Source of the DNA: Mobula hypostoma
Lineage: Eukaryota
Reading direction: 5' to 3'
Length of the DNA: 64,000 nt
Assembly: GCF_963921235.1 (NCBI RefSeq)
Contig: NC_086097.1
Location: 172,238,001-172,302,000 of the forward strand
A program made the position numbers and the translations under genes. Shown piece by piece: positions 15,734-61,894 of the stretch. Position 1 is the first letter of the stretch. Each line of letters starts with the position of its first letter. Under the pieces are notes generated by a model. The model searched no databases. It saw only the letters and a program-made list of their open reading frames with translations, and was not told the DNA's origin.

Positions 15734-16485
15734 CAGCACATTCCAGGCACCCACCACTCTCTGCCCCGCACATCTCCTCTGAACTTGTCCCTCTCACCTT
15801 ATATTCTTCATTTGCTATTGCTTTTCTCTTGTTCTATGTCAATGTACTGATGTGATAAAATGATCTGTCTGGATGGCATGCAAAACAAAGTTTTTATTGT
15901 ACCTCGGTGTATGTGACAATAACAGACCGATGCCAATTACCATTTGTAAATTAGCTGGTTTAAAATAAACAAGTTTGCTTCATTTATAAAAGCATACACC
16001 AAGAAGCCTAACTCTGGTATTATTTGAATAGCTGATTGTCAGTTGTGTCACTCGATGAGGCCGAATAGGAATAGGAATTGGAATTGGAATTGTTTTGTTA
16101 TTGGACAGGAAGGATATATATGCACATAGACAATGCATTCACTTAGAACATTAAACTTTAATTTTTGTCACATAATGTTGTGAAAAGCTTGTCTTGCACA
16201 CTGTTCATACAGGTCAAAGTGCATTAAGATTGTGCAAGATAAAACAATAATAGGATGCAGGATAAAGAGCAGTGCAGGTAAACAATAAGATGCAAGATCA
16301 TTACGAGGTAGATGGTGAGGTCAACAGCCCAATTTATTCATTCAACATTATTGTAAAAGCAGGGTAGAAACTATGCTTTGACGACACAAACAACAGGAAT
16401 TCTGCAGATGCTGGAAATTCAAGCAACACACATCAAAGTTGCTGGTGAATGCAGCAAGCCAGGCAGCATCTCTAGGAAGAGGTGC

Positions 16486-16521
16486 AGTGGACGTTTCAGG
16501 CCAAGACCCTTCGTCAGGACT
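16486..16521 (-). ncRNA. Minimal type I hammerhead ribozyme motif
   Basis: Minus strand AGUC-CUGACGA-AGGGUCUUGGCCU-GAAACGUC-CACU (one helix I mismatch). Confidence 0.75.
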
Positions 16522-17000
16522 AACTGAAGGAAGAGTGAGTAAGAGATTTGAAAGTTGGAGGGGAGGGGGAGATCCAAAATGATAGGAGAAGACAGGAGGG
16601 GGAGGGATGGAGCCAAGAGCTGGACAGGTGATTGGCAAAAGGGATACGAGAGGATCATGGGACAGGAGGTCCAGGAAGAAAGACAGTGGGGGGGAACCCA
16701 GAGGATGGGCAAGGGGTATATTCAGAGGGACAGAGGGAGAAAAAGGCGAGTGAGAGAAAGAATGTGTGTATAAAAGTAAGTAACAGATGGGGTACGAGGG
16801 GGAGGTGGGGCTTTAGCGGAAGTTAGAGAAGTCGATGTTCATGCCATCAGGTTGGAGGCTACCCAAACGGAATATAAGGTGTTGTTCCTCCAACATGAGT
16901 GTGGCTTCATCTTTATAGTAGAGGAGGCCGTGGATAGACATGTCAGAATGGGAATGGGATGTGGAATTAAAATGTGTGGCCACTGGGAGATCCTGCTTTC

Positions 17001-17693
17001 CCTGGCTTCCCTTCCTCCACTATCAACTCTGCTCTTAAACGCATCTCCCCCATTTCACGTACATCTGCTCTCGCTCTATCCTCCCGCCACCCCACTAGGA
17101 ATAGGGTTCCTCTGGTCCTCACCTACCACCCCAGCCTCCGGGTCCAACATATTATTCTCCGTAACTTCCGCCACCTCCAACGGGATCCCACCACTAAGCA
17201 CATCTTTCCCTCCCCCGCTCTCTCTGCTTTCCGCAGGGATCACTCCCTACGCGACTCCCTTGTCCATTCGTCCCCCCCATCCCTCCCCACTGATCTCCCT
17301 CCTGGCACTTATCCGTGTAAGCAGAACAAGTGCTACACAGACCCTTACACTTCCTCCCTTACCACCATTCAAGGCCCCAAACAGTCCTTCCAGGTGAAGC
17401 GACACTTCACCTGTGAGTCGGCTGGGGTGATATACTGCGTCCGGTACTCCCGATGTGGCCTTTTATATATTGGCGAGACCCAACGCAGACTGGGAGACCG
17501 CTTTGCTGAACACCTACGCTCTGTCCGCCAGAGAAAGCAGGATCTCACAGTGGCCACGCATTTTAATTCCACATCCCATTCCTATTCTGACATGTCTATC
17601 CACGGCCTCCTCTACTGTAGAGATGAAGCTACACTCAGGTTGGAGGAACAACACCTTATATTCCGTCTGGTTGCCTCCAACCTGGTGGCATGA
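17001..17693 (+). pseudogene. Penelope ORF C-terminal fragment: thumb/linker, Cys motif, GIY-YIG endonuclease
   Basis: RVPLVLTYHP, YPCKQNKCYT, HFTCESAGVIYCVRYSRCGLLYIGET, VATHFN; 5'-truncated. Confidence 0.9.
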
Positions 17694-18014
17694 ACATCGA
17701 CTTCTCTAACTTCCGCTAATGCCCCACCTCCCCCTCATACCCCATCTGTTACTTATTTTTATATACACATTCTTTCTCTCACTCTCCTTTTTCTCCCTCT
17801 GTCCCTCTGAATATACCCCTTGCCCATCCTCTGGGTTCCCCCCACCCCTTTTCTTTCTCCCCGGTCCTCCTGTCCCATGATCCTCTCGTATCCCTTTTGC
17901 CTATCACCTGTCCAGCTCTTGGCTCCATCCCTCCCCCGCCTCTCTTCTCCTATCATTTTGGATCTCCCCCTCCCCCTCCCACTTTCAAATCTCTTACTCA
18001 CTCTTCCTTCAGTT

Positions 18015-18050
18015 AGTCCTGACGAAGGGTCTCGGCCTGAAACGTTGACT
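18015..18050 (+). ncRNA. Minimal type I hammerhead ribozyme motif
   Basis: AGUC-CUGACGA-AGGGUCUCGGCCU-GAAACGUU-GACU. Confidence 0.8.
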
Positions 18051-18249
18051 GCACCTCTTCCTAGAGATGCTGCCTGGCCTGCTGCGTTCACCAGCAACTT
18101 TGATGTGTGTAGCTATGCTTTGATCCTGCTGTGTATGCTTTCAGGCTTTTGTATTCTCTGCCCGATGGAAGAGGAGAGAATACAGAATGTCCAAGGTTGG
18201 GTGGTGAGTGACACAAGGACACAACATAATGGGCTCAAGTCCCAGTCAG

Positions 18250-20255: not shown

Positions 20256-21897
20256 ATGGAGTTTAAAAGTAGGCCATAAAAACATGTTTTTCTTTCCTTA
20301 CAGTTAATCTTGTTAAATTGCAATGTCAAATGATTTGATTTCCCCGACACCCAGCAACTAAGTCTCCAGTTACTTTTCCAAGATCAACTGGCCAGCTACT
20401 CTGTAAATTCAAAGAAAAAAGGCACATGACTGGCTTTCAACTAAAAAATACGGTTTTTCATCACCACATGAATTCTGCAATAGCCCCAGCAGGATTCTGC
20501 TGTTCTTAATATTTCAAACTTGTATTAATATTTATCACTGTAGTGCAACATAGATCAAGACTGTCCACCATTGCTCTATAAATTAATGTAATAAATTTCT
20601 AACCTGACCTATTAGCTGTTTGGACATGAAGCATTCACGTTAAAGCTAATTTGTTTTTTTTTTCCCCTCCTGTGTCTCTTCAGATCAAGATTTACAGCTG
20701 TCTTCCTAAAATAGTACAAATAAGCTTCCAAAGTGTTTGCTATGATCAGATGATATTGCTTACCAACTCTAGCTTGTCTCTTTTTATAGATGAAACATAA
20801 AAATTCTACAAGACTATGAGTGCAACAGTGTTAGGCCCAGTCAGTAAATTTATTTAGTAAGATTAGGGTTGAGCTTCCAGTTTAACTGTGTTTGCCTCCT
20901 TGATCCCCAGATCACTTGATTCTCTGAGCATATAAAAAATCTCTTGATCTCTGGATTGAATAAGCTCAGTGACTGAACACCTGGAGCCCTCTTTGAGAGA
21001 CAGCAGTGATAGAATAATTTATTGAGTTCTACAAATTTATGGAATGCTCATGAATTGGGATAGAGGTACAATTCTATCAGCAGATGGAATTTGTTCACAC
21101 TTTACCACCACTGCACCCCAATGTTGCCCAGGTTTTGAGGATCTGAGGTATAGGGAGAGGTTGAGCAGGCTAGGACCTTATAGCCTAATAGAATATAGGA
21201 GACTCAGGGTGAAGTGTGAAAGGTGTATAAAATCATGAGGGACATAGACATATACTCTTGGTCTTTTTCCCGGAAAAAGGGAATCAAAAACTAAAGAGTA
21301 GGGGTTTAAGGTGAGAGTGGAAGGATTCAAAAGGGATCTGAGGAATAACTCATTCCATACGCTCTTTTTAATGCAGAGGGTGATGAGTATATGGAATGAG
21401 CTGCCCGAGAAAGTGGTTGAAGCAGGAACAAATACAATATTTAAATAACACATAGAAAGGTACATTGATGGAAAAAATTGAGAAGGAAAACACAAAATAA
21501 TCTGCAGATGCTGGGGTCAAAGCAACACTCACAACACGCTGGAGGAACTCAGCAGGTCGGGCAGCATCTGTGGAAAAGATCGGCCAACGTTATGGGCCAA
21601 AACCCTTCATCAGGAAGAGGGAAGAGGAAGAGGTAGAGGGAAGGGGCAGAGGCCCTATAAAGAAGGTAGGGGGAGGGTGGGAAGGAGGCTGGTAGGTTCC
21701 AGGTGAAAACCCAGTAAGGGGAAAGATAAAGGGGTGGGGGAAGGGAGACAGGGAGGTGATAGGCAGGAAAGGTGAAGAAAGAATAGGGGAAAACACAATG
21801 GGTAGTAGAAGGAGGCGGAACCATGAGGGAGGTGATAGGCAGCTGGGGGAGGGGGCAGAGTGACATATGGATAAGGGAAGGGAGGGGGAGGGAATTA

Positions 21898-23140
21898 GAC
21901 CTCACCAGTTCCCCACCACCACTACCCTCCTCCGGTTGGCGGAACTGGTTCTCACACTCAATGACTTCTCTTTTGGCTCTTTCCACTTTCTTCAGACTAA
22001 GGGTGTAGCTATGGGAACTCGCATGGGCCCTAGCTATGCCTGCCTCTTCGTTGGTTACGTGGAACAGTCTGTGCTCTAAATCTATTCTGGTACTGCTCCC
22101 CAATTTTTCCTTCGGTACATTGACGACTACATTGGTGCTGCTTCCTGCACCCATGCTGAGCTCATCAATTTCATCGACTTTACTTCTAACTTCCACCCAG
22201 CCCTCAAAATCACTTGGTCCATCTCGGACACTTCTCTCCCTTTTCTCGATCTCTCGGTCTCCATCTCTGGAGACAGACTGTCCACTGACATCTTCTACAA
22301 GCCCACTGACTCTTATAGCTACCTCAACTATACCTCTTCCCACTCCGCCACATGCAAAAATGCCATTCCCTATTCCCAGTTCCTCCGTCTCCGCCGCATC
22401 TGCTCCGAGGATGAGGTTTTCCGTTCCAGGACATCTCAAGGTTCCCCTTTCTTTACGGAATGTGGATTCCCTTCTGCTGTCATCAATGATGCCCTCACCC
22501 GCATCTCCTCTATTTCCCGAACTTCGGCCCTCACCCCATCCTCCCATCACCACAATAGGGACAGAGTTCCCCTTGTCTTCACCTACCACCCCACCAGCCT
22601 CCAGATCCAACACATTATCCTCCGCAACTTTTGCCACCTTCAAAAGGACCCCACCACTAAGCACATCTTTCCCTCTCCACCCCCTTCTGCCTTCCGCAGG
22701 GATCGGTCCCACACGTCCCTCCCCACGGATCTCCCACCAGGCAGTTATCCCTGTAAGCGCAAGTGCTACAGCTGTCCCTACACCTCCTCTCTTGCCACCA
22801 TTCAGGGCCCTAAACAGTCCTTCCAAGTGAGGCAACACTTCACTTGTGAGTCTGTTGGGGTCATCTATTGCATCCGGTGTGGCCTCCTCTACATCGGTGA
22901 AACCCGACGCAGATTGGGGGACCGCTTCGTCGAGCACCTCCACTCCATCCGCCAAAACAGACAGGATCTCCCAGTAGCCACCCACTTCAACTCCGCTTCC
23001 CAATCCCATTCAGATATGTCCATACATGGCTTCCTCTACTGCTATGATGAGGCTAAACTCAGTTTGGAGGAGCAACACTTCATATACCGTCTAGGTCCAG
23101 CCCCTTGGTATGAACATAGAATTCTCCAACTTCCGGTAAT
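21898..23140 (+). pseudogene. Penelope RT core plus GIY-YIG coding remnant with a stop and indels
   Basis: Premature TAA at 22077-22079; internal deletions at about 22710 and 22875 relative to the subfamily A copy. Confidence 0.9.
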
Positions 23141-23400
23141 TCCCTCCCCCTCCCTTCCCCTATCCCTATGTCACTCTGCCCCTCCCCCAGATGCCTATCA
23201 CATCCCTCATGGTTCCGCCTCCTACTACCCATTGTGTTTTCCCCTATTCTTTCTTCACCTTTCCTGCCTATCACCTCCCTGCTTCCCTTCCCCCACCCCT
23301 TTATCTTTCCCCGTACTGGTTTTTCACCTGGAACCTACCAGCCTTCTCCTTCCCACCCTCCCCCCACCTTCTTTATAGGGCCTCTGCCCCTTTCCCCTAC

Positions 23401-23437
23401 AGTCCTGACGAAGGGTTCCGGCCCGAAAGGTCAACCG
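23401..23437 (+). ncRNA. Hammerhead ribozyme motif, variant
   Basis: AGUC-CUGACGA-AGGGUUCCGGCCC-GAAAGGUC-AACCG; the ACGU palindrome is mutated. The inverted arm copy (about 21583-21615) has lost GAAA. Confidence 0.6.
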
Positions 23438-23975
23438 ATCTTTTCCACGGATGCTGTCCGAACTGCTGAGTTCCTCCAGCAAATTGAGAAGGATATGGGC
23501 CAAATTTATGAAAATGGGATTAGCTTAGATGGGCATCTTGGGCAACATAGATGAGTTGAGCCTATGACTCTATTACTGCAACTAAACTTAGAGGCCATGT
23601 ATTACAGGTGATGTAGGGTAATGAATTGAGACAGATGAGTCAAAAGATATAATGAAAAATATTGCAGAAATTCAGCAGATCAGCCAGTATCCATGAGAGA
23701 TATAGAGTAATGACATGGAGCAGATGTAGGCAAATTAGCTTTTATCAAGATATATATTTGTCAGGAAATGGGTTGCAATCTGCTATCATCAACCAGGGGA
23801 ACTAGCTTTATGCAGATCCAAAGTTTTCATCTCATAAGTGCCTAACAATTCCTGATGTGCTCAAACTTTTCAAGTGTTGGGGAGCATGCACTTCACAGTG
23901 ACTAAGACATTTGAATTGTCAAGGCAATGAAGGCTACTGAAAGTGAGTGCTGGTAAATGGGATAAATTTTGATGG

Positions 23976-26178
23976 ATAGAAACATAGAAACATAGAAAAT
24001 AGGTGCAGGAGTAGGCCATTCGGCCCTTCGAGCCTGCACCGCCATTTATTATGATCATGACTGATCATCCAACTCAGAACCCCGCCCCAGCCTTCCCTCC
24101 ATACGCCCTGATCCCTTTAGCCACAAGGGCCATATCTAACTCCCTCTTAAATATAGCCAATGAACTGGCCTCAACAGTTTGCTGTGGCAGAGAATTCCAC
24201 AGATTCACCACTCTCTGTGTGAAGAAGTTTTTCCTAATCTCGGTCCTAAAAGGCTTCCCCTCTATCCTCAAACTGTGACCCCTCGTTCTGGACTTCCCCA
24301 ACATCGGGAACAATCTTCCTGCATCTAGCCTGTCCAATCCCTTTGGGATCTTATACGTTACAATCAGATCCCCCCTCAATCTTCTAAATTCCAACGAGTA
24401 CAAGCCCAGTTCATCCAGTCTTTCTTCATATGAAAGTCCTGCCATCCCAGGAATCAATCTGGTGAACCTTCTTTGTACTCCCTCTATGGCAAAGATGTCT
24501 TTCCTCAGATTAGGGGACCAAAACTGCACACAATACTCCAGGTGTGGTCTCACCAAGGCCTTGTACAACTGCAGTAGTACCTCCCTGCTCCTGTACTCGA
24601 ATCCTCTCGCTATAAATGCCAGCATACCATTCGCCTTTTTCACCGCCTGCTGTACCTGCATGCCCACTTTCAATGACTGGTGTATAATGACACCCAGGTC
24701 TCGTTGCACCTCCCCTTTTCCTAATCGGCCACCATTCAGATAATAATCTGTTTTCCTATTTTTGCCACCAAAGTGGATAACTTCACATTTATCCACATTA
24801 AATTGCATCTGCCATGAGTTTGTCCACTCACCCAACCTATCCAAGTCACCCTGCATCCTCTTAGCATCCTCCTCACTGCTAACACTGCCACCCAGCTTCG
24901 TGTCATCCGCAAACTTGGAGATGCTGCATTTAATTCCCTCATCCAAGTCATTAATATATATTGTAAACAACTGGGGTCCCAGCACTGAGCCTTGCGGTAC
25001 CCCACTAGTCACCGCCTGCCATTCTGAAAAGGTCCCGTTTATTCCCACGCTTTGCTTCCTGTCTGCTAACCAATTCTCCACCCACACCAATTCCTTACCC
25101 CCAATACCGTGTGCTTTAAGTTTGCACACTAATCTCCTGTGTGGGACCTTGTCAAAAGCCTTTTGAAAATCCAAATATACCACATCCACTGGTTCTTCCC
25201 TATCCACTCTACTAGTTACACCCTCAAAAAATTCTATGAGATTCGTCAGACATGATTTTCCTTTCACAAATCCATGCTGACTTTGTCCGATCATTTCACC
25301 GCTTTCCAAATGTGCTGTTATCACATCCTTGATAACTGACTCCAGCAGTTTCCCCACCACCGACGTTAGGCTAACCGGTCTATAATTCCCCGGTTTCTCT
25401 CTCCCTCCTTTTTTAAAAAGTGGGGTTACATTGGCCACCCTCCAATCCTCAGGAACTAGTCCAGAATCTAACGAGTTTTGAAAAATTATCACTAATGCAT
25501 CCACTATTTCTTGGGCTACTTCCTTAAACACTCTAGGATGCAGACCATCTGGCCCTGGGGATTTATCTGCCTTCAATCCCTTCAATTTACCTAACACCAC
25601 TTCCCTACTAACTTGTATTTCGCTCAGTTCCTCCATCTCACTGGACCCTCTGTCCCTTACTATTTCTGGAAGATTATTTATGTCCTCCTTAGTGAAGACA
25701 GAACCAAAGTAATTATTCAATTGGTCTGCCATGTCCTTGCTCCCCATAATCAATTCACCTGTTTCTGTCTGCAGGGGACCTACATTTGTCTTTACCAGTC
25801 TTTTCCTTTTTACATATCTATAAAAGCTTTTACAGTCCGTTTTTATGTTCCCCGCCAGTTTTCTCTCATAATCTTTTTTCCCCTTCCTAATTAAGCCCTT
25901 TGTCCTCCTCTGCTGAACTCTGAATTTCTCCCAGTCCTCAGGTGAGCCACTTTCTCTGGCTAATTTGTATGCTACTTCTTTGGAATTGATACTATCCCTA
26001 ATTTCTCTTGTCAGCCACGGGTGCACTACCTTCCTTGATTTATTCTTTTGCCAAACTGGGATGAACAATTGTTGTAGTTCATCCATGCAACCTTTAAATG
26101 CTTGCCATTGCATATCCACCGTCAATCCTTTAAGTGTCATTTGCCAGTCTATCTTAGCTAATTCACGTCTCATACCTT
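23976..26178 (-). mobile_element. Young 5'-truncated CR1 LINE
   Basis: Uninterrupted ORF2 segment; 8-bp (atagaaac)n tail at 23977-23999; possible TSD ttttgatg at 23967-23974 / 26179-26186. Confidence 0.97.
24074..26173 (-). CDS. CR1 ORF2 reverse transcriptase, open for 699 aa, endonuclease domain missing
   Basis: KSPGPDG, NYRPVSLTS, QHGF, YLDFQKAFDKV, GVPQGSVLGP, FADD, DLGV, RPHLEYC all in frame. Confidence 0.9.
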   Translation of the reverse strand: MRRELAKIDWQMTLKGLTVDMQWQAFKGCMDELQQLFIPVWQKNKSRKVVHPWLTREIRDSINSKEVAYKLARESGSPEDWEKFRVQQRRTKGLIRKGKKDYERKLAGNIKTDCKSFYRYVKRKRLVKTNVGPLQTETGELIMGSKDMADQLNNYFGSVFTKEDINNLPEIVRDRGSSEMEELSEIQVSREVVLGKLKGLKADKSPGPDGLHPRVFKEVAQEIVDALVIIFQNSLDSGLVPEDWRVANVTPLFKKGGREKPGNYRPVSLTSVVGKLLESVIKDVITAHLESGEMIGQSQHGFVKGKSCLTNLIEFFEGVTSRVDREEPVDVVYLDFQKAFDKVPHRRLVCKLKAHGIGGKELVWVENWLADRKQSVGINGTFSEWQAVTSGVPQGSVLGPQLFTIYINDLDEGIKCSISKFADDTKLGGSVSSEEDAKRMQGDLDRLGEWTNSWQMQFNVDKCEVIHFGGKNRKTDYYLNGGRLGKGEVQRDLGVIIHQSLKVGMQVQQAVKKANGMLAFIARGFEYRSREVLLQLYKALVRPHLEYCVQFWSPNLRKDIFAIEGVQRRFTRLIPGMAGLSYEERLDELGLYSLEFRRLRGDLIVTYKIPKGLDRLDAGRLFPMLGKSRTRGHSLRIEGKPFRTEIRKNFFTQRVVNLWNSLPQQTVEASSLAIFKRELDMALVAKGIRAYGGKAGAGF

Positions 26179-26994
26179 TTTTGATGTTTGATGACCAGTG
26201 TGTACTTGATGGGCTGAATGGCGTGTTTCTGTGCAGTAAGGATGCTTTGTGTACCTTTGGAAGCTGTAAACTTCAATGGGGAACAATAATGAATGTTTTT
26301 CATATCTGAATCTAGTTTGTCAATTCAGCACAATGAATGCTAGCACTGCTGCTAAATATGAAAAGAGACCTAATTAGTATGTCATTTCTGACCTCAGGGT
26401 TAAATCCAGTGTGTAATGGAGTATGGTTTGTATTTGTTTTGTCATTAATGAGATCTGAAGAATAAAAAAAAGAATACCTTTGGGATCACAGTTATTGGCA
26501 TCCCACCTACTACCTTGAATATTCATTCCCTCATTACTGTGGCTACAGGGAGTTCCATCTCCAAAATGCACCAGGGTTATTTCCTGTGCTGACACAGCAG
26601 CACTTTTCTAACCCCATAACCTCTGCATTAAAAAGGACAAGGGCAGCAGATGAACAGGAACACTACCACCAGAATTTCTCTCACACACAGTTTTGACGTT
26701 GAAATACATGACAATTCCTTCATCGTTATTGTGTCTAAATGTTGGAAGTCCACTATCAAATAAGACAATTGGAGCTCCTTCCACTGAATTATTGCAATTT
26801 TTCAAAGATGAATTTCTAGTCTACCAAGAGGTGCTAGTATTGGGCAACAGCACACAACACACGTCTACTGTCCTTTTCCCTTCATACATTTATATTTACA
26901 TGAAGCACTGCCACAAGGAAGCACTTTCCATCATCAAAGACCCCCACCATCCAGGCCATGGCCCTTCTCACTAATACTATCAGGCAGCAGGAAT

Positions 26995-28696
26995 TATAGT
27001 CATAGTCATACTTTATTGATCCCAGGGGGAAATTGGTTTTCGTTACAGTTGCACCATAAATAATAAATAGTAATAAAACCATAAATAGTTAAATAGTAAT
27101 ATGTAAATTATGCCATGAAGTAAGTCCAGGACCAGCCCATTGGCTCAGGGTGTCTGACCCTCCAAGGGAGGAGTTGTAAAGTTTGATGGCCACAGGCAGG
27201 AATGACTTCCAATGACGCTCTGTGCTGCATCTCGGAGGAATGAGTCTCTGGCTGAATGTACTCCTGTGCTCAACCAGTACATTATGTAGTGGATGGGAGA
27301 CATTGTCCAAGATGGCACGCAACTTGGCCAGCATCCTCTTTTCAGACACCAGCGTCAGAGAGTCCAGTTCCATCCCCACAACATCACTGGCCTTACGAAT
27401 GAGATTGTTGATTCTGTTGGTGTCTGCTACCCTCAGCCTGCTGCCCCAGCACACAACAGCAAACACGATCGCACTGGCCACCACAGACTCGTAGAACATC
27501 CTCAGCATCGTCTGGCAGATGTTAAAGGACCTCAGTCTCCTCAGGGAATAGAGACGGCTCTGACCGTTCTTGTAGACAGCCTCAGTGTTCTTTGACCAGT
27601 CCAGTTTATTGTCAATTCGTATCCCCAGGTATTTGTAATCCTCCACCATGTCCACACTGACTCCCTGGATGGAAACAGGGGTCACCTGTACCTTAGCTCT
27701 CCTCAGGTCTACCACCAGCTCCTTAGTCTTTTTCACATTAAGCTGCAGATAATTTTGCTCACACCATGTGACAAAGCTTCCTACCATAGCCCTGTACTAG
27801 CCTCATCTCCCTTGCTGATGCATCCAACTATGGTAGAGTCATCAGAAAACTTCTGAAGATGACAAGACTCTTGTGCAGTAGTTGAAGTCCAAAGTGTAAA
27901 TGGTGAAGAGAAAGGGAGACAAGACAGTCCCCCGTGGAGCCCCAGTGCTGCTGATCACTCTGTCAGACACAGTGTTTCAAGCACATGTACTGTGGTCTGC
28001 CAGTCAGATAATCAAGAATCCATGACACCAGGAAAGCATCCACCTGCATTGCTGTCAGCTTCTCCACAAGCAGAGCAGAGCGGATAGTGTTGAACGCACT
28101 GGAGAAGTCAAAAAACATGACCCCCACAGTACTCACTGGCTTGTCCAGGTGGGCGTAGACACAGTTCAGCAGGTAGATGATGGCATCCTCAACTCCTAGT
28201 CGGGGCTGGTAGGCGAACTGGAGGGGATCTAAGTGTGGCCTGACCATGGGCCGGAGCAGTTCCAGAACAAGTCTCTCCAGGGTCTTCATGATGTGAGAGG
28301 TCAATGCCACCGGTCTGTAGTCATTGAGGCCACTGGGGCGCGGCGTCTTCAGCACAGGGACGAGGCAGGACGTCTTCCACAGCACAGGAACCCTCCGGAG
28401 CCTCAGGATCAGGCTGAATACATGGCGAAGTACTCCACATAGCTGAGGGGCACAGGCTTTGAGCACCCTGGTACTGAAACCATCCGGTCCTGCAGCCTTG
28501 CTTGGGTTGAGACGTTTCAGCTGTCTTCTCACCTGTTCAGCTGTGAAGCCCACTGTGGTAGTTTCGTGTGGGGAAGGGGTATAGTCATGAGAGCAGGGTG
28601 GGGGACTGTGAGGAGGGGTAGGAGGGGAGAGTGGAATATGTGTTGGTTGGGGGCCGACAACAGATGGCTCATGTGGGGGATTGGCAGGGGCCACAA
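26995..28696 (-). mobile_element. Young Rex1/Babar LINE, 5'-truncated
   Basis: KAAGPDG, NDYRPVALTSHIMK, LDPLQFAY, FFDFSSAFNTI, KTKELVVD, YKYLG; (actatg)n tail. Confidence 0.93.
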
Positions 28697-29489
28697 GGAA
28701 CGGAAGCTTAGGTCCCACACCAGCAGGTTCAGGAACAAATATTACTCTGCAAGCATCAGGTTCCTCAACTGATGTGGATAACTTTGTTCTACAACCTGCA
28801 GATTCATTTTCAAAGACTCTTCATAACTCATGTTTTCAGTGCTATTTTTATAGCAGTTTGTCTTCTTTTGTATATTGGTTGGTTGTTACTCTTTGTCTGT
28901 CTACGTATAGCTTTTCATAATTTTTCCCCGTAAATGCCTGCAAGAAAAGGTGGTTATAGTAACAAAACGTACCTTGATAATAAATTACTCTGATGTTCAA
29001 ACTTTGATGAAAGCTGCTTGACCCATCAAATTCCTCCAGCACCTTGTGTTTACCACATAGACCTTAAAGAGTCATGAATAAAACTTTTGACATATTGACC
29101 TTCATAAATCAGGGTATTGAGTATAGGAGTTGTGATGGTATGTTGAAATTGACATTGATGAGGCTACATTTGGAGTATTCTGTGAAGTTCTGGTCACCTA
29201 CTTACAATCAGAGTACATTCACGTCACCACATACAACCCTGAGATTCTATTTCTGCAGGCATACTTAGCAAATCTTTAGAACAGTAACTGTAAACTGTAA
29301 ACATCATGAACTGTTAACTGTAAACAAACTGCAAATTCAAATATAAATAAATAGCAATAAATAATGAGCATGAAATAACAATATAACAGAGTCCTTAAAT
29401 GTGTGTAGCTATCCCCTTTTATCCAAGAGCCTGGTGGCTGAGAGTAGTAACTGTTCTTGAACCTGGTGGTTGAGTCCTAAGGCACCTGT

Positions 29490-30800
29490 TGTCATGGTCC
29501 AGTCTGTGAAGTCCGCATTCCGGTTCATGGTCCGGTCTGTGGACTCAGGACTCCGGGTCTTTCAGCTGTCCCTTGTTTTGGTTGAGTTAATCATAGGTAC
29601 CTGATTCCCATCCTGGGGCGTGGAATATAAGTAGCTTTGGGGTTGAGTGTGGGCGGCTGGTTTGTCTTGCCAAGATCCCCTGGGAGCAACCTGCCGGTGG
29701 AAGGTTGGTGTGGCTACTTGCCATCTTTAGGCTACGTTGGAGAACCATCGCTTCATGGAGCCTTGCTGTCGGTAGTCAGAGCTGTCTTTGCAGTATGGAT
29801 TCAGCTGTTTTCTGGGCCTGCTGAGTGCCCATCAGCCACTCTGAGCTAGGTAGGGATCCAGTTGTTTCCGCAGCCAGCAGAGGTTGCTGGCTGTAACTGC
29901 GACTCAAAGCAACCCTGAAGCAGAGATGGAACTGTCTGTCATTCTTTGGTGTTTGTCTCTTCTTGTCCTCACCTCCATGGGGTAAGTTAGGCTGTTCTGC
30001 CGTTGCCCTGTGGGGGGATCTGTCTTGTCTTGTCCTCGCCTCTGTGGGATAAGTCAGGCCATTCTGCCGTTGCCCTGCGGGGGGACCTGTCTTGTCTTGT
30101 CTTTGCCTCTGTTGGGTAAGTCCGGCCGTTCTGTCGTTACCCAACAGGTGGACCTGTCCCACCTTAGTGTGGAGATAAAGTTGAGTCCCGGCTTGTCTAT
30201 GGATGAGTCCCGGCTCTTTGTTTATGTACTGTCCTGTGTCATTTTGGTGTTGTGTTAAAGATGAGTCCTAGCTTTTCGAAGGATAAGTCCCAGCTCTATG
30301 TTGATGTACAGTTCCCAGTCTGTCTCCGAGCTCCAGCCTCCGAGTTATCAGCTTCCACATTCCAAGACTCAAGACCCCAGCCTAAAGCCTCAAAACTCAA
30401 GACCCCAGACCCCAGCCTGTCTCCAAGTTCAAGACTCAAGACCCCAGCCTGTCTCCAAGTTCAAGAGCCAAGACCCCAGCCTGTCTCCAATTTCAAGAGC
30501 CAAGACCCCAGCCACATCCTGTCCTGTAGTCATGTCATGTCCTTGCCTGGTTTTGGGGCCCGAGCCCGAGGCAAGACCCAGGTTCTGGGTCCTCGTCCAG
30601 TCTCGGGCTCAGAGTCCAAGCCTTGTCTCCTAGTCCATGGTTCCTAGTCCTGGTCCCGCTTTCCCTAGCCCAAGTCTATGCTCTTGTCCCTGCTCCTTGC
30701 CTGAATTCTGTCACGTCCTTAGTCTAGTCAAGTTCTGTTCCTTGTACTTCAGTGTCTGTGTCTTGCATTTGGGTCCGTTCCCAACGCCCCCATTGTGACA
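29490..30800 (+). mobile_element. Solo LTR (Gypsy-like, 1311 bp) with internal tandem repeats
   Basis: TGTCA...TGACA termini; 5-bp TSD cctgt (29485-29489 / 30801-30805); TATAA at about 29625. Confidence 0.85.
30360..30515 (+). repeat. Approximately 31-38 bp minisatellite inside the solo LTR
   Basis: Recurring caagaccccagcctgtctccaagttcaaga units, 4-5 copies. A second approximately 58-bp three-copy array lies at about 29960-30140. Confidence 0.85.
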
Positions 30801-38446: not shown

Positions 38447-39045
38447 TTTAATTCCACATTTTAATTCCACATCCCATTCCCATTCTGACATGTCTATCCA
38501 CGGCCTCCTCTACTGTAAAGATGAAGCCACACTCAGGTTGGAGGAACAACACCTTATATTCCGTCTGGGTAGCCTCCAACCTGATGGCATGAACATCGAC
38601 TTCTCTAACTTCCGCTAAGGCCCCACCTCCCCCTCGTACCCCATCCATTACTCATTTTTATGCACACATTCTTTCTCTCACTCTCCTTTTTCTCCCTCTG
38701 TCCCTCTGACTATACCTCTTGCCCATCCTCTGGGTCCCCCCACCTTGTCTTTCTTCCCGGACCTCCTGTCCCATGATCCTCTTGAATCCCCTTTTGCCTA
38801 TCACCTGTCCAGCTCTTGGCTCTATCCCTCCCCCTCCTGTCTTCTCCTATCATTTTGGATCTCCCCCTCCCCCTCCAACTTTCAAATCCCTTACTCACTC
38901 TTCCTTCAGTTAGTCCTGACGAAGGGTCTCGGCCTGAAACGTCGACTGCACCTCTTCCTACAGATGCTGCTTGGCCTGCTGCGTTCACCAGCAACTTTGA
39001 TGTGTGTTGCTTGAATTTCCAGCATCTGCAGAATTCCTGTTGTTG
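38447..39045 (+). mobile_element. Penelope subfamily A solo 3' arm (end of GIY-YIG plus pLTR)
   Basis: Near-identical to 17561-18110 plus tail; 14-bp TSD actgcatgaaatat at 38433-38446 / 39046-39059. Confidence 0.95.
38912..38947 (+). ncRNA. Intact minimal type I hammerhead ribozyme motif
   Basis: Helix I AGUC/GACU; core CUGACGA; helix II AGG/CCU; GAAA; palindromic ACGU helix III; predicted GUC cleavage after 38943. Confidence 0.85.
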
Positions 39046-45200: not shown

Positions 45201-45911
45201 TCAGCAGAATTTGTGTGCTTTAATCCAGATTTCTGCTGCTGATGGACAAAGCCCAGTGCTGTCTCCCAACATTCTCCCTTTAGTAGAGCATAGAGTGTGG
45301 AACAGTTCAGGGCAGGAACAGGCCCTTTGGCTCACAATATCTGTGCTCACCAAATTAAACTAATCTGACATGTTGTCTTTCAAGTCTCTTTTAAATCTCT
45401 CCCTTCTTACCTCAAACCTGTGCCCTCTAGTTCTTGATTCCCCAACCCTGGGGAAAAGACTGAGTGAATTCACCCAATTCATACCTCTCATCATTTTATT
45501 CACTTCTATAAGGTCATCCCTCGTTCTCCTGAGTTCCAAGGAATAAGGTCCTAGCCTGCCTAATCTCTCATGGCCATAGAAGAAAGGGAAGGGGGAGGGG
45601 CACCAGAAGGAGGTGATGAGCAGGCAACCAGATGCAGTGAGAGAGGGAAATGGGAATAAGGAATGGAGAAGGAGAGGGAGAGAGAAAATTACTGGAATTT
45701 CAAGAAATCAATGTTTATGCCATCAGGTTGGAAGCTACCCTGATGGAATACAAGGTGTTGCTCGTCCAACCTGAGTGTGGCCTCATCGCAGCAGTAGAGG
45801 AGGAGAAGAACGCAAACAACAGGAATTCTGCAGATGCTGGAAATTCAAGCAACACACATAAAAGTTGCTGGTGAACACAGCAGGCCAGACAGCATCTCTA
45901 GGAAGAGGTGC

Positions 45912-45947
45912 AGTCGACGTTTCAGGCCGAGACCCTTCGTCAGGACT
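45912..45947 (-). ncRNA. Intact minimal hammerhead motif (left arm)
   Basis: Minus strand AGUC-CUGACGA-AGGGUCUCGGCCU-GAAACGUC-GACU. Confidence 0.85.
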
Positions 45948-45967
45948 AACTGAAGGAAGAGTCAGTT

Positions 45968-46003
45968 AGTCCTGATGAAGGGTCTCGGCCTGAAACGTCA
46001 ACT
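45968..46003 (+). ncRNA. Minimal hammerhead motif (right arm)
   Basis: AGUC-CUGAUGA-AGGGUCUCGGCCU-GAAACGUC-AACU (one helix I mismatch). Confidence 0.78.
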
Positions 46004-46979
46004 GTACCTCTTCCTAGAGATGCTGCCTGGCCTGCTGTGTTCACCAGCAACTTTTATGTGTGTTGCTTGAGGAGGATAAGAACTGATATTGGAATGGGTA
46101 TGGGAAGTCGAACTGAAATGGGTGGCCACCGGGAGATCCCGCATATCCTGGCAGATGGAGCATAGGTTTCAGCGAAGCGATCTCCCAGTCTCCTGTATAT
46201 CGGTCTCACCGATCTACAGGAGCCCACACCGGGAGCATCAGATACAGTGGATAACCCCAAGAGAGTCACAGGTAAAGGGTCGCCTCATCTAGAAGGACTG
46301 TTTGGGGCTCTGAATGGTAGTGACAGAAGAGGTGTAGGGGTAGTTATGGTACTTGTTCCACTTGCAAGGACAAGTGCCAGGAGGAAAATCAGTGGAGGAG
46401 GGATGGATGAATGAAGAAAACTATTATTTGTTAAATAATGCTTACTTTGCATGGTTGCACTATAAGTATCTTTCACTGCAAATGGCAGAATTAATAACTT
46501 ACAAGTGTGTTCCTGTGGGTTTAAGATAAGTTCTATTTTGTTCATGTAGTTTGTAAACAGGACAAAACAGGTCCATCAAGGCAGCAGAAACAGGGGTAAA
46601 ATAATCAGAGATATTTACAGCAAAGAAAAAAGCCAATGATACACGTTGATCAAAAATGAACTGTTGTTAAATTCCACCTTCAAGTCCTTGGCCAGTAACC
46701 CTACTAGTGATGTCTTATCCATTAACGTGATGGCTGGTTTCTGACGCCACAACCTCTTCAAGCTGTCGAGTTGCTGTAGAAACTATTGAGAGATGTACTT
46801 AGAGAATGCTCACTGTTTTCTTCATACATAAGTCATTCAGGACACAGAAAATATTGGTAAAGTTACTGAACTAAAGGCGTAAAAAATAGAAAGATATTAA
46901 ACATTTTTAAAGAATGTATGAAAAATTAAAGAATTTAGGATAAAAGATAACAAATCGCTAAATTGGTAAGTTAAGTGAA

Positions 46980-55689: not shown

Positions 55690-56480
55690 AGAGTGGACAT
55701 TGAGAGGATATTTCCCATTAGTTGTAAAGTCTGTGATCAAGGGCACAGCCTCAGAATAAAGGATGAACCGTTAGAACTGAAATGAGGAGTAATTTCTTCA
55801 GCCATACAGTGGTGAATCTGTAGCAAATTTTTTTTTGCAACAGAGAGCTATGGAAGACAAGACACTGAGTGTTATTTAAGACATAGATTGATAGGTTATT
55901 GATTGGTGGAGGGAGAGGGTTATGTATGGACTACAGGGGGAAGACAGGAACACAAAATAATCTGCAGATGCTGGGGTCAAAGCAACACTCACAACAAGCT
56001 GGAGGAACTCAGCAGGTCAGGCAGCATCCGTGGAAAAGATCGGTCGACGTTTCAGGCCGGAACCCTTCGTCAGGACTGTAGGGGGAAGGGACAGAGGCCC
56101 TATAAAGAAGGTGGGGGGAGGGTGGGAAGGAGAAGGCTGGTAGGCTCCAGGTGAAAAACCAGTAAGGGAAAAGATAAAGGGGTGGGGGAAGGGAGGCAGG
56201 GAGGTGATATGCAGGAAAGGTGAAGAAGGAATAGGGGAAAACACAATGGATAGTAGAAGGAGGCAGAACCAAGAGGAAGGTGGTAGGCAGCTGTGGGAGG
56301 GGGCAGAGTGACATAGGGATAGGGGAAGGGAGGGGGAGAGAATTACCAGAAGTTGGAGAATTCTACGTTCATACATAGAAGACAGGAGATTGGTGCTGAG
56401 AAAGAAAAAGTCAGCCATGATTGAATGGCACACAAAACTCGATGGGCCAAATGGACTAATTCTGCCCCTGTATCTTACAG
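55690..56480 (+). mobile_element. CR1 3' fragment interrupted by a Penelope pLTR
   Basis: RVDIERIFP...gaaatgaggagtaatttcttcagcc; the 3' UTR resumes at 56378. Confidence 0.8.
55950..56377 (-). mobile_element. Penelope subfamily B solo pLTR with a hammerhead motif at 56043-56077 (-)
   Basis: Near-identical to 21488-21897; 10-bp TSD gaagacagga at 55940-55949 / 56378-56387; minus strand GUC-CUGACGA-AGGGUUCCGGCCU-GAAACGUC-GAC. Confidence 0.93.
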
Positions 56481-61067: not shown

Positions 61068-61894
61068 AAGGGAGATGAGGCTGAGTACAGGGCTACGGTA
61101 GGAAACTTTGTCACATGGTGTGAGCAGAATTATCTGTAGCTTAATGTGAAAAAGACTGAGGAGCTGGTGGTAGACCTGAGGAGGGCTAAGGTACCGGTGA
61201 CCCCTGTTTCCATCCAGGGGGTCAGTGTGGACATGGTGGAGGATTACAAATACCTGGGGATACGAATTGACAATAAACTGGACTGGTCAAAGAACACTGA
61301 GACTGTCTACAAGAAGGGTCAGAGCCGTCTCTATTTCCTGAGGAGACTGAGGTCCTTTAACATCTGCCGGACGATGCTGAGGATGTTTTACGAGTCTGTG
61401 GTGGCCAGTGCGATCATGTTTGCTGTTGTGTGCTGGGGCAGCAGGCTGAGGGTAACAGATACCAACAGAATCAACAAACTCATTCGTAAGGCCAGTGATG
61501 TTGTGGGGATGGAACTGGACTCTCTGACGGTGGCGTCTGAAAAGAGGATGCTGTCTAAGTTGCATGCCATCTTGGACAATGTCTCCCATCCACTACATAA
61601 TGTACTCTTTGGGCACAGGAGTACATTCAGCCAGAGACTCATTCCACTGAGATGCAACACAGAGCGTCATAGGAGTCATTCCTGCCTATGGCCATCGAAC
61701 TTTATAACTCCTCCCTTGGAGGGTCAGACACCCTGAGCCAATAGGCTGGTCCTGGACTTATTTCATAATTTACTGGCATAATTTACATATTACTATTTAA
61801 CTACTTATGGTTTTATTACCATTTATTTTTTATGGTGCAACTGTAACGAAAACCAATTTCCCCCGGGATCATTAAAGTATGACTATGACTATGA
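61068..61894 (+). mobile_element. Young Rex1/Babar LINE 3' fragment, same family as 26995-28696
   Basis: KKTEELVVDLRR...YKYLGIRIDNKLDW...LYFLRRLRSF; (actatg)n tail; nearly identical in reverse complement to 26997-27812. Confidence 0.93.

Follow-up and report, generated by a model that had tools for sequence, protein, structure and literature searches.

The 257-bp palindrome analysed here lies in a window of 64,000 nucleotides of the Mobula hypostoma genome (NC_086097.1, positions 172,238,001 to 172,302,000). It very probably represents one head-to-head insertion event, in which a young Penelope-like retrotransposon, heavily truncated at its 5' side, entered an older copy; the likely route is the priming of short cDNAs on both nicked strands of the target, followed by their joining. 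The evidence indicates a real and ordinary insertion of a known kind, which was likely assembled anew when it integrated, without a hairpin-shaped ribozyme element of its own serving as the source. It represents one point on a continuum of head-to-head insertions, its two hammerheads are passengers of the terminal repeat, and the copy was most likely dead on arrival.

We re-measured the hairpin of the original prediction, and its two inverted 109-nt arms, 8-nt loop, 33-nt left tail and 15-nt TSD with one mismatch all agree. The arms are 96% complementary across a gap of 8 nt and differ at four sites, all of them transitions. The insert between the TSD copies spans 45812-46068 (257 bp), and the end of the right arm overlaps the right TSD copy by 2 nt. 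The loop is not an independent spacer; it is the element's own upstream sequence and belongs to the tailed, minus-strand arm. The apex junction shows an imperfect microhomology, with 5 of 7 nt identical to the source sequence. The locus is of the nested type, i.e. the stretch covered by its tailed arm includes the whole tail-less arm. Only the last 109-150 nt of the element remain in both copies, and no ORF is left. The locus is an inverted pair only; a search of 45300-46600 for direct repeats of the unit yielded none. The relevant features of the window, numbered from its first letter, are the following.

16388..18114 (no strand): a longer head-to-head insertion that belongs to the subfamily of the palindrome; its arms are staggered, the tailed minus-strand arm of ~620 nt and the tail-less plus-strand arm of ~1,110 nt with a GIY-YIG fragment; 11-nt TSD
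45694..45803 (minus): left part of a decayed, older copy of a Penelope-like element, covering the end of its endonuclease region and 82.7% identical to the young copy L070
45797..45811 (plus): left TSD copy, 15 nt, sequence of the older host element and continuous with it
45812..45844 (minus): 33-nt 3' tail present on this arm only, corresponding to the optional 30-40-bp PLE extension described in the accessible parts of PMC8557442 and PMC3846280
45845..45953 (minus): tailed arm, arm positions 1-109 at the 3' end of a young Penelope-like element of the Neptune/Nematis type
45912..45947 (minus): putative minimal type-I hammerhead, its helix I intact; core at 45943-45919, cleavage predicted after 45916 (motif parse, design of PMC4209133)
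45954..45961 (minus): 8-nt loop, element sequence directly upstream of the tailed arm
45962..46070 (plus): tail-less inverted arm, arm positions 1-109, last 2 nt in common with the right TSD copy
45968..46003 (plus): putative minimal hammerhead with a broken helix I closing pair (G>A at 46000); core 45972-45996, predicted cut after 45999 (motif parse)
46069..46083 (plus): right TSD copy, one mismatch
46092..46406 (minus): right part of the same older copy, 76.6% identical to L070 and collinear with the left part

Both flanks align collinearly across the insert to one copy, in the endonuclease region of a young Penelope-like element. Thus, the hairpin inserted as one unit into an older relative, as had been proposed. 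The arm itself corresponds to the 3' terminus of an element with long copies in which a frame of ~800 aa matches RVT_1 and GIY-YIG. In L070, a frame of 794 aa is continuous with the arm. Its matches to RVT_1 (E=7.4e-5) and GIY-YIG (E=9.7e-4) are both below the curated Pfam cut-offs, which counts against our reading of the locus. A C-x4-C-x2-C linker is found upstream of the GIY-YIG motif in L069 and L070; according to the accessible part of PMC8557442, a CX2-5CxxC linker between RT and EN marks the Neptune and Nematis clades. Judging from these motifs, the parent appears to be a PLE with an RT, a C-terminal GIY-YIG domain and a Neptune/Nematis-type linker. We looked for its full-length 5' end in four long loci and the flanking copy, where it was not found. 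A 14-nt hammerhead anchor has 94,687 occurrences in the genome, other subfamilies included.

We also examined the surroundings of the insertion. Of 96 stop-to-stop frames, 41 were compared with Pfam, and four had matches, two to RVT_1 and two to ALKBH8_N. None of these matches identifies a host exon, although short exons would escape such a search. We take ALKBH8_N to be a LINE-associated match. LINE-like frames with RVT_1 and ALKBH8_N matches are located at 24077-26272, 27092-28820 and 61140-61733. The segments 26996-27813 and 61068-61892 are inverted copies that are 94% identical, and 29954-30158 and 30363-30513 are short tandem duplications with a period of ~67 nt. A second Penelope-like subfamily, ~75-80% identical and with its own hammerhead variant, is present at 21489-23480 and 55949-56374; the former looks like another head-to-head pair, with arms of ~360 nt.

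An inverted 5'-truncated copy, a one-sided tail of 30-40 bp and a TSD make up the typical PLE structure in the accessible parts of PMC8557442 and of Arkhipova et al. 2013 (PMC3846280). The locus shares with the inverted-pLTR insertions of EN+ PLEs described there (PMC3846280; Craig et al. 2021, PMC8557442) a head-to-head inverted copy, a TSD, a palindrome at the junction and a parent with RT and GIY-YIG. The tail at one end is also similar, with 33 nt at the locus and 31 bp in rotifer Pen2a. All the hallmarks of an EN+ PLE insertion appear to be present, namely a GIY-YIG RT parent, an inverted truncated copy, a tail at one end, a TSD and, according to motif parsing, a putative minimal hammerhead in the pLTR. 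In contrast with the EN+ PLE insertions in those parts of the two papers, both copies at the locus are reduced to the last 109-150 nt without an ORF, the TSD is longer (13-15 nt, as opposed to 8-10 bp in the rotifer examples), and the miniature head-to-head form is very abundant in the M. hypostoma genome.

A hammerhead had been announced in each arm. A core was indeed found on both strands, but the right one has its helix I closing pair broken by the G>A substitution at 46000, the first base past its predicted cut site. Rfam at gathering scores gave no match in the 64-kb window, a scan that is uninformative for minimal hammerheads; hence, the call rests on motif parsing and the literature. 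The motif resembles the min-HHR of PMC4209133 in its type-I minimal core, 4-bp helix I, bulged base before helix II and lack of loop 3. In that study, no cleavage was found for a single minimal motif, and dual min-HHRs on opposite strands, ~100-700 bp apart in Schistosoma, were attributed to truncated PLEs. At our locus, in contrast, the cores are 28 nt apart and inside a perfect duplex, one of them with a broken helix I pair. The 259-nt RNA is predicted to fold as one rod (-219 kcal/mol, z = -30 relative to 200 shuffles), and prefix folding predicts pairing of the sense core, as it emerges, with the antisense arm at a mean probability of 0.89-0.96. If the copy is transcribed, both ribozymes are thus predicted to be buried in a duplex, in line with the masking initially envisaged.

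We then analysed the population to which the locus belongs. Genome-wide, opposed hammerhead anchors are 0-30 nt apart at at least 1,341 loci and 31-60 nt apart at at least 798; as both counts are of exact anchor matches, they are lower bounds. We examined 75 of these hairpins, the first 50 and the first 25 listed, all from one contig and therefore not a random draw. There are 39 distinct apexes among the first 50 listed and 24 among the first 25 listed. Seventy-two of the 75 hairpins have one tailed and one tail-less arm and none has two tails, the remaining three belonging to other subfamilies. Among these 72, a TSD is present in 64 and is 13-15 nt long in 49. The tailed arm ends at arm position 131-140 in all of them, the reference used stopping at position 140, and the tail-less end is found within positions 93-113 in 62. 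At the 5' side, the tail-less arm extends further upstream in 19 of the 72, the tailed arm does so in 17, and the two are nearly equal in 36; with a threshold of 10 nt, the tailed arm is the longer in 7 and the tail-less arm in 12 (the staggered type). Their junctions comprise 19 microhomologies, 13 blunt joints and 40 insertions, and 10 of 20 longer inserts share at least 6 nt with the element, a proportion given without a chance control. These junctions look like the products of end joining.

The same plan exists at other scales. Hairpins shorter than ours include 212 that fold back inside the ribozyme and 163 that do so 3' of it. Therefore, the proposal that the locus is the shortest product of an inverted-arm integration pathway holds inasmuch as it is a short one, but it is not the shortest. 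At the other extreme, arms reach up to 2,281 bp of the RT + GIY-YIG element. When 1.024 Mb of unselected DNA and the window are taken together, 26 insertions have a 3' end and 11 of these are head-to-head; without the window, the figures are 22 and 9. The absence of TSDs in 'simple' insertions was left out of the argument, since the narrow interval searched misses TSDs that adjoin templated inserts. At two loci, the tailed arm is nearly tail-only (34-38 nt): it faces a tail-less arm of 2.2 kb in L029 (G000:C1, about 172305448-172307700) and one of 100 nt at C36:70045982-70046115. Each has a 13-nt TSD.

The original prediction also raised the possibility that the locus is a rod-like ambisense-hammerhead mini-element, non-autonomous and retrozyme-like, that would be expressed as a hairpin RNA and mobilised as one unit in trans. 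It suggested searching the genome for the apex to reveal a family, different apexes among similar hairpins being the result that would speak against one. The exact apex does occur at eight dispersed loci, seven of them with a 13-15-nt TSD, which favours such an element. However, similar hairpins show many apexes, and the same-apex loci do not form a clade. Their tail-less arms end at arm positions 109, 98, 106, 104, 102, 104, 52 and 96, and the loop sits on the tail-less arm in L003, the other seven being nested. We scored haplotypes in 18 loci, seven with the same apex and 11 others, after dropping L007, L010, L020 and L022 for their short arms and L021 as a member of another subfamily. The seven same-apex loci fall into five haplotype classes and are not more similar to one another than random subsets are (2.52 versus 1.90 differences, P(<=obs) = 0.92). 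In addition, the tail is on opposite arms in different loci in four of the eight groups with recurrent apexes. Since the exact-apex loci differ in haplotype, in short-arm length and in the arm that bears the loop, the apex arose repeatedly and independently. The arm variants had been described as lacking in the other subfamily A copies of the window; the one at position 94 is indeed absent from the other copies there, but genome-wide it is a subfamily marker, found in 9 of 72 tailed arms together with other apexes.

Two of the exact-apex loci, L001 and L002, agree in apex, orientation and haplotype class, the class that comprises 9 of the 72 tailed arms, and two other pairs share longer apexes despite unrelated flanks; these observations also favour a mini-element. 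In the first of these pairs, L182 (G000:C1:111302320-111302930) and L183 (111312535-111313145), an identical complex apex insert of 19 nt is found 10 kb apart with different flanks and TSDs. The short arm of L183 has a subfamily haplotype unlike that of its own tailed arm, which matches L182; ectopic gene conversion may be responsible, or a hairpin transcript may have served again as one of two templates. In the second pair, L204 (G000:C1:100180835-100181445) and L205 (102738350-102738960) have the same 47-nt apex and are 98.9% identical over 281 nt. They are located 2.5 Mb apart in unrelated flanks and both have the commonest haplotype; either recurrence or re-mobilisation may account for them. 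Some secondary copying of hairpin centres may thus have taken place (L001/L002, L182/L183). Nevertheless, the eight same-apex loci compare with over 2,100 similar hairpins, the locus contains no tandem array, the hairpin is predicted to bury both ribozymes, and the right ribozyme has a broken helix I pair. The idea of a trans-mobilised mini-element is thus largely refuted, and we regard it as very improbable.

The non-LTR (animal) retrozymes, as described in the accessible part of bioRxiv 10.64898/2026.07.22.740005, are likewise non-coding, PLE-derived and equipped with a type-I hammerhead, but they are head-to-tail tandem units with a fixed monomer, whereas the locus is an inverted pair with a variable apex and variable ends. 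The assignment of the locus to this class was rejected, as it has no head-to-tail units and no fixed monomer, and its same-apex loci form no clade.

How the two arms came to face each other is best considered with their haplotypes. At four diagnostic sites, the arms of a locus agree in 68 of 70, 68 of 70, 63 of 68 and 57 of 60 loci, where 35.5, 27.3, 34.6 and 43.8 are expected at random. Thus, the arms within a locus are of one haplotype and derive from a single template or source locus, which bears out the one template suggested at first; later arm-to-arm conversion could add to this agreement. We favour the following course of events. The endonuclease would nick both target strands ~13-15 nt apart. 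One 3' end would prime at a distal RT start (arm position ~140), giving rise to the tail, and the other at a proximal RT start (~95-110), giving rise to the tail-less arm. Both cDNAs would stop near the hammerhead 5' edge and would then be linked through microhomology or by templated end joining. Priming twice, at staggered nicks, would explain the nested and staggered classes, the one-tail rule and the narrow TSD range altogether. We consider this mechanism as a whole, from the nicks to the end joining, somewhat more plausible than not. It is consistent with the in vitro behaviour of the Anolis Poseidon element PAc (Frangieh et al. 2024, PMC11167929), for which the accessible part of the article reports that both strands are nicked and extended, that two RT starts bracket the tail, that a dimer is predicted and that hammerhead cleavage is dispensable for insertion; these features fit the one-tail rule. 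PAc differs in belonging to the Penelope/Poseidon clade, and that part of the article does not model head-to-head products and calls the integration steps after the first priming unvalidated.

Alternatively, a single tail-primed cDNA might snap back on a short microhomology and copy itself, with later trimming of the centre generating uneven apexes. The second arm would then be a subset of the first, as it is at the locus, at seven of the eight exact-apex loci and in 17 of the 72 sisters; the shared haplotype of the arms and the 36 of 72 hairpins with near-equal 5' ends also agree with self-priming, which the accessible part of PMC3846280 proposes and favours for such palindromes. The nested locus itself is also explained by a snap-back. 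In contrast, 19 of the 72 tail-less arms reach further upstream than their partners, 12 of them by at least 10 nt, and a 38-nt tail-only arm faces a 2.2-kb arm; hence, one arm is not simply contained in its partner. Asymmetric deletion at the palindrome centre could produce small staggers at a later stage. The long staggered cases would require deletions of 0.5-2.2 kb in the tailed arm only. Furthermore, the clustering of tail-less ends at positions 93-113 in 62 of 72 hairpins is what a second RT start would predict (PMC11167929, accessible part). We therefore regard snap-back as rather unlikely. In the literature searched, whose coverage excluded most subscription papers and Repbase, we found no match to the nested-versus-staggered argument, nothing relevant to twin priming in Penelope or to head-to-head reverse transcription, and no named palindromic hammerhead element in sharks.

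Returning to dual priming, we determined where along the arm the hairpins fold. The proportion of anchor copies found in hairpins that fold within 30 nt peaks at the ribozyme 5' edge with 2.83%, whereas values of 1.36%, 0.26% and 0.049% were obtained for the cut site, position 79 and arm position -99, respectively; the ratios are rough, as the anchors differ in mutability and subfamily range. The cut site is thus not favoured as a hot spot relative to the 5' edge, and a fold exactly at the cut is found in 1 of 50 loci listed. A pure bias towards short lengths was rejected as the only cause of the peak, since the shorter hairpins at position 79 are rarer. Independently, loose 5' ends at the first base of helix I (arm position 7) occur in 72 short-read contigs (X2). 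A branch-point-like motif, a pyrimidine tract and an AG directly precede helix I in most of 44 copies tallied (38890-38909 of the window and its equivalents). The 5' ends cluster at the predicted branch position -8/-7, where the tailed arm of the locus starts. In Penelope of D. virilis, the end of an intron maps to the 5' end of helix I (PMC4209133). We found no spliced GT..AG joint ending at the putative acceptor among 15 of 96 joints listed. The RNA 5' end, a lariat branch, RT stalling and local microhomology are candidate causes of the peak. As a tentative and rather doubtful proposal, the mini-hairpins could be twin cDNAs from both nicked strands, initiated at two RT starts and stopping at a fixed RNA landmark at the hammerhead 5' edge. 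This landmark may be the 5' end of the pLTR transcript, in a strong-stop-like manner, or the branch point or 3' splice site of an apparent intron, and a rare subset (L182/L183) may have been copied again.

An assembly artefact arising from a fold-back read is extremely improbable. It would agree with the finding that no contig piece spans the apex among the 32 listed, but the arms differ at four sites, the mismatched TSD duplicates host sequence, and the sister loci follow the same TSD rule (64 of the 72 examined). Furthermore, a short-read contig matches 46045-46139 without any difference across the right junction, with fewer than 31 letters on the arm side. A separate proposal concerns function: whatever their origin, the hairpins might give rise to dsRNA that undergoes dicing or editing and thereby silences the family of the parent element. 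The 109-bp duplex (-219 kcal/mol predicted), the existence of thousands of loci and the antisense small RNAs from rotifer Penelope copies reported in the accessible part of PMC3846280 are in its favour. Nevertheless, long head-to-head insertions would yield the same dsRNA, so that nothing singles out the locus at 45797-46083. We hold such a role to be improbable. If transcribed, hairpins of this type would be an abundant dsRNA source.

The locus itself, a dead fragment among thousands, matters little. Its value lies in the population statistics that it gives access to on PLE integration, whose steps past the first priming are called unvalidated in PMC11167929. The one-tail rule, the 13-15-nt TSD, the equal shares of nested and staggered hairpins and the apex peak are quantitative constraints that separate dual priming from self-priming. 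If the proposed landmark model is true, the genome of M. hypostoma would be a natural library of footprints left by the second, unsolved half of Penelope integration.
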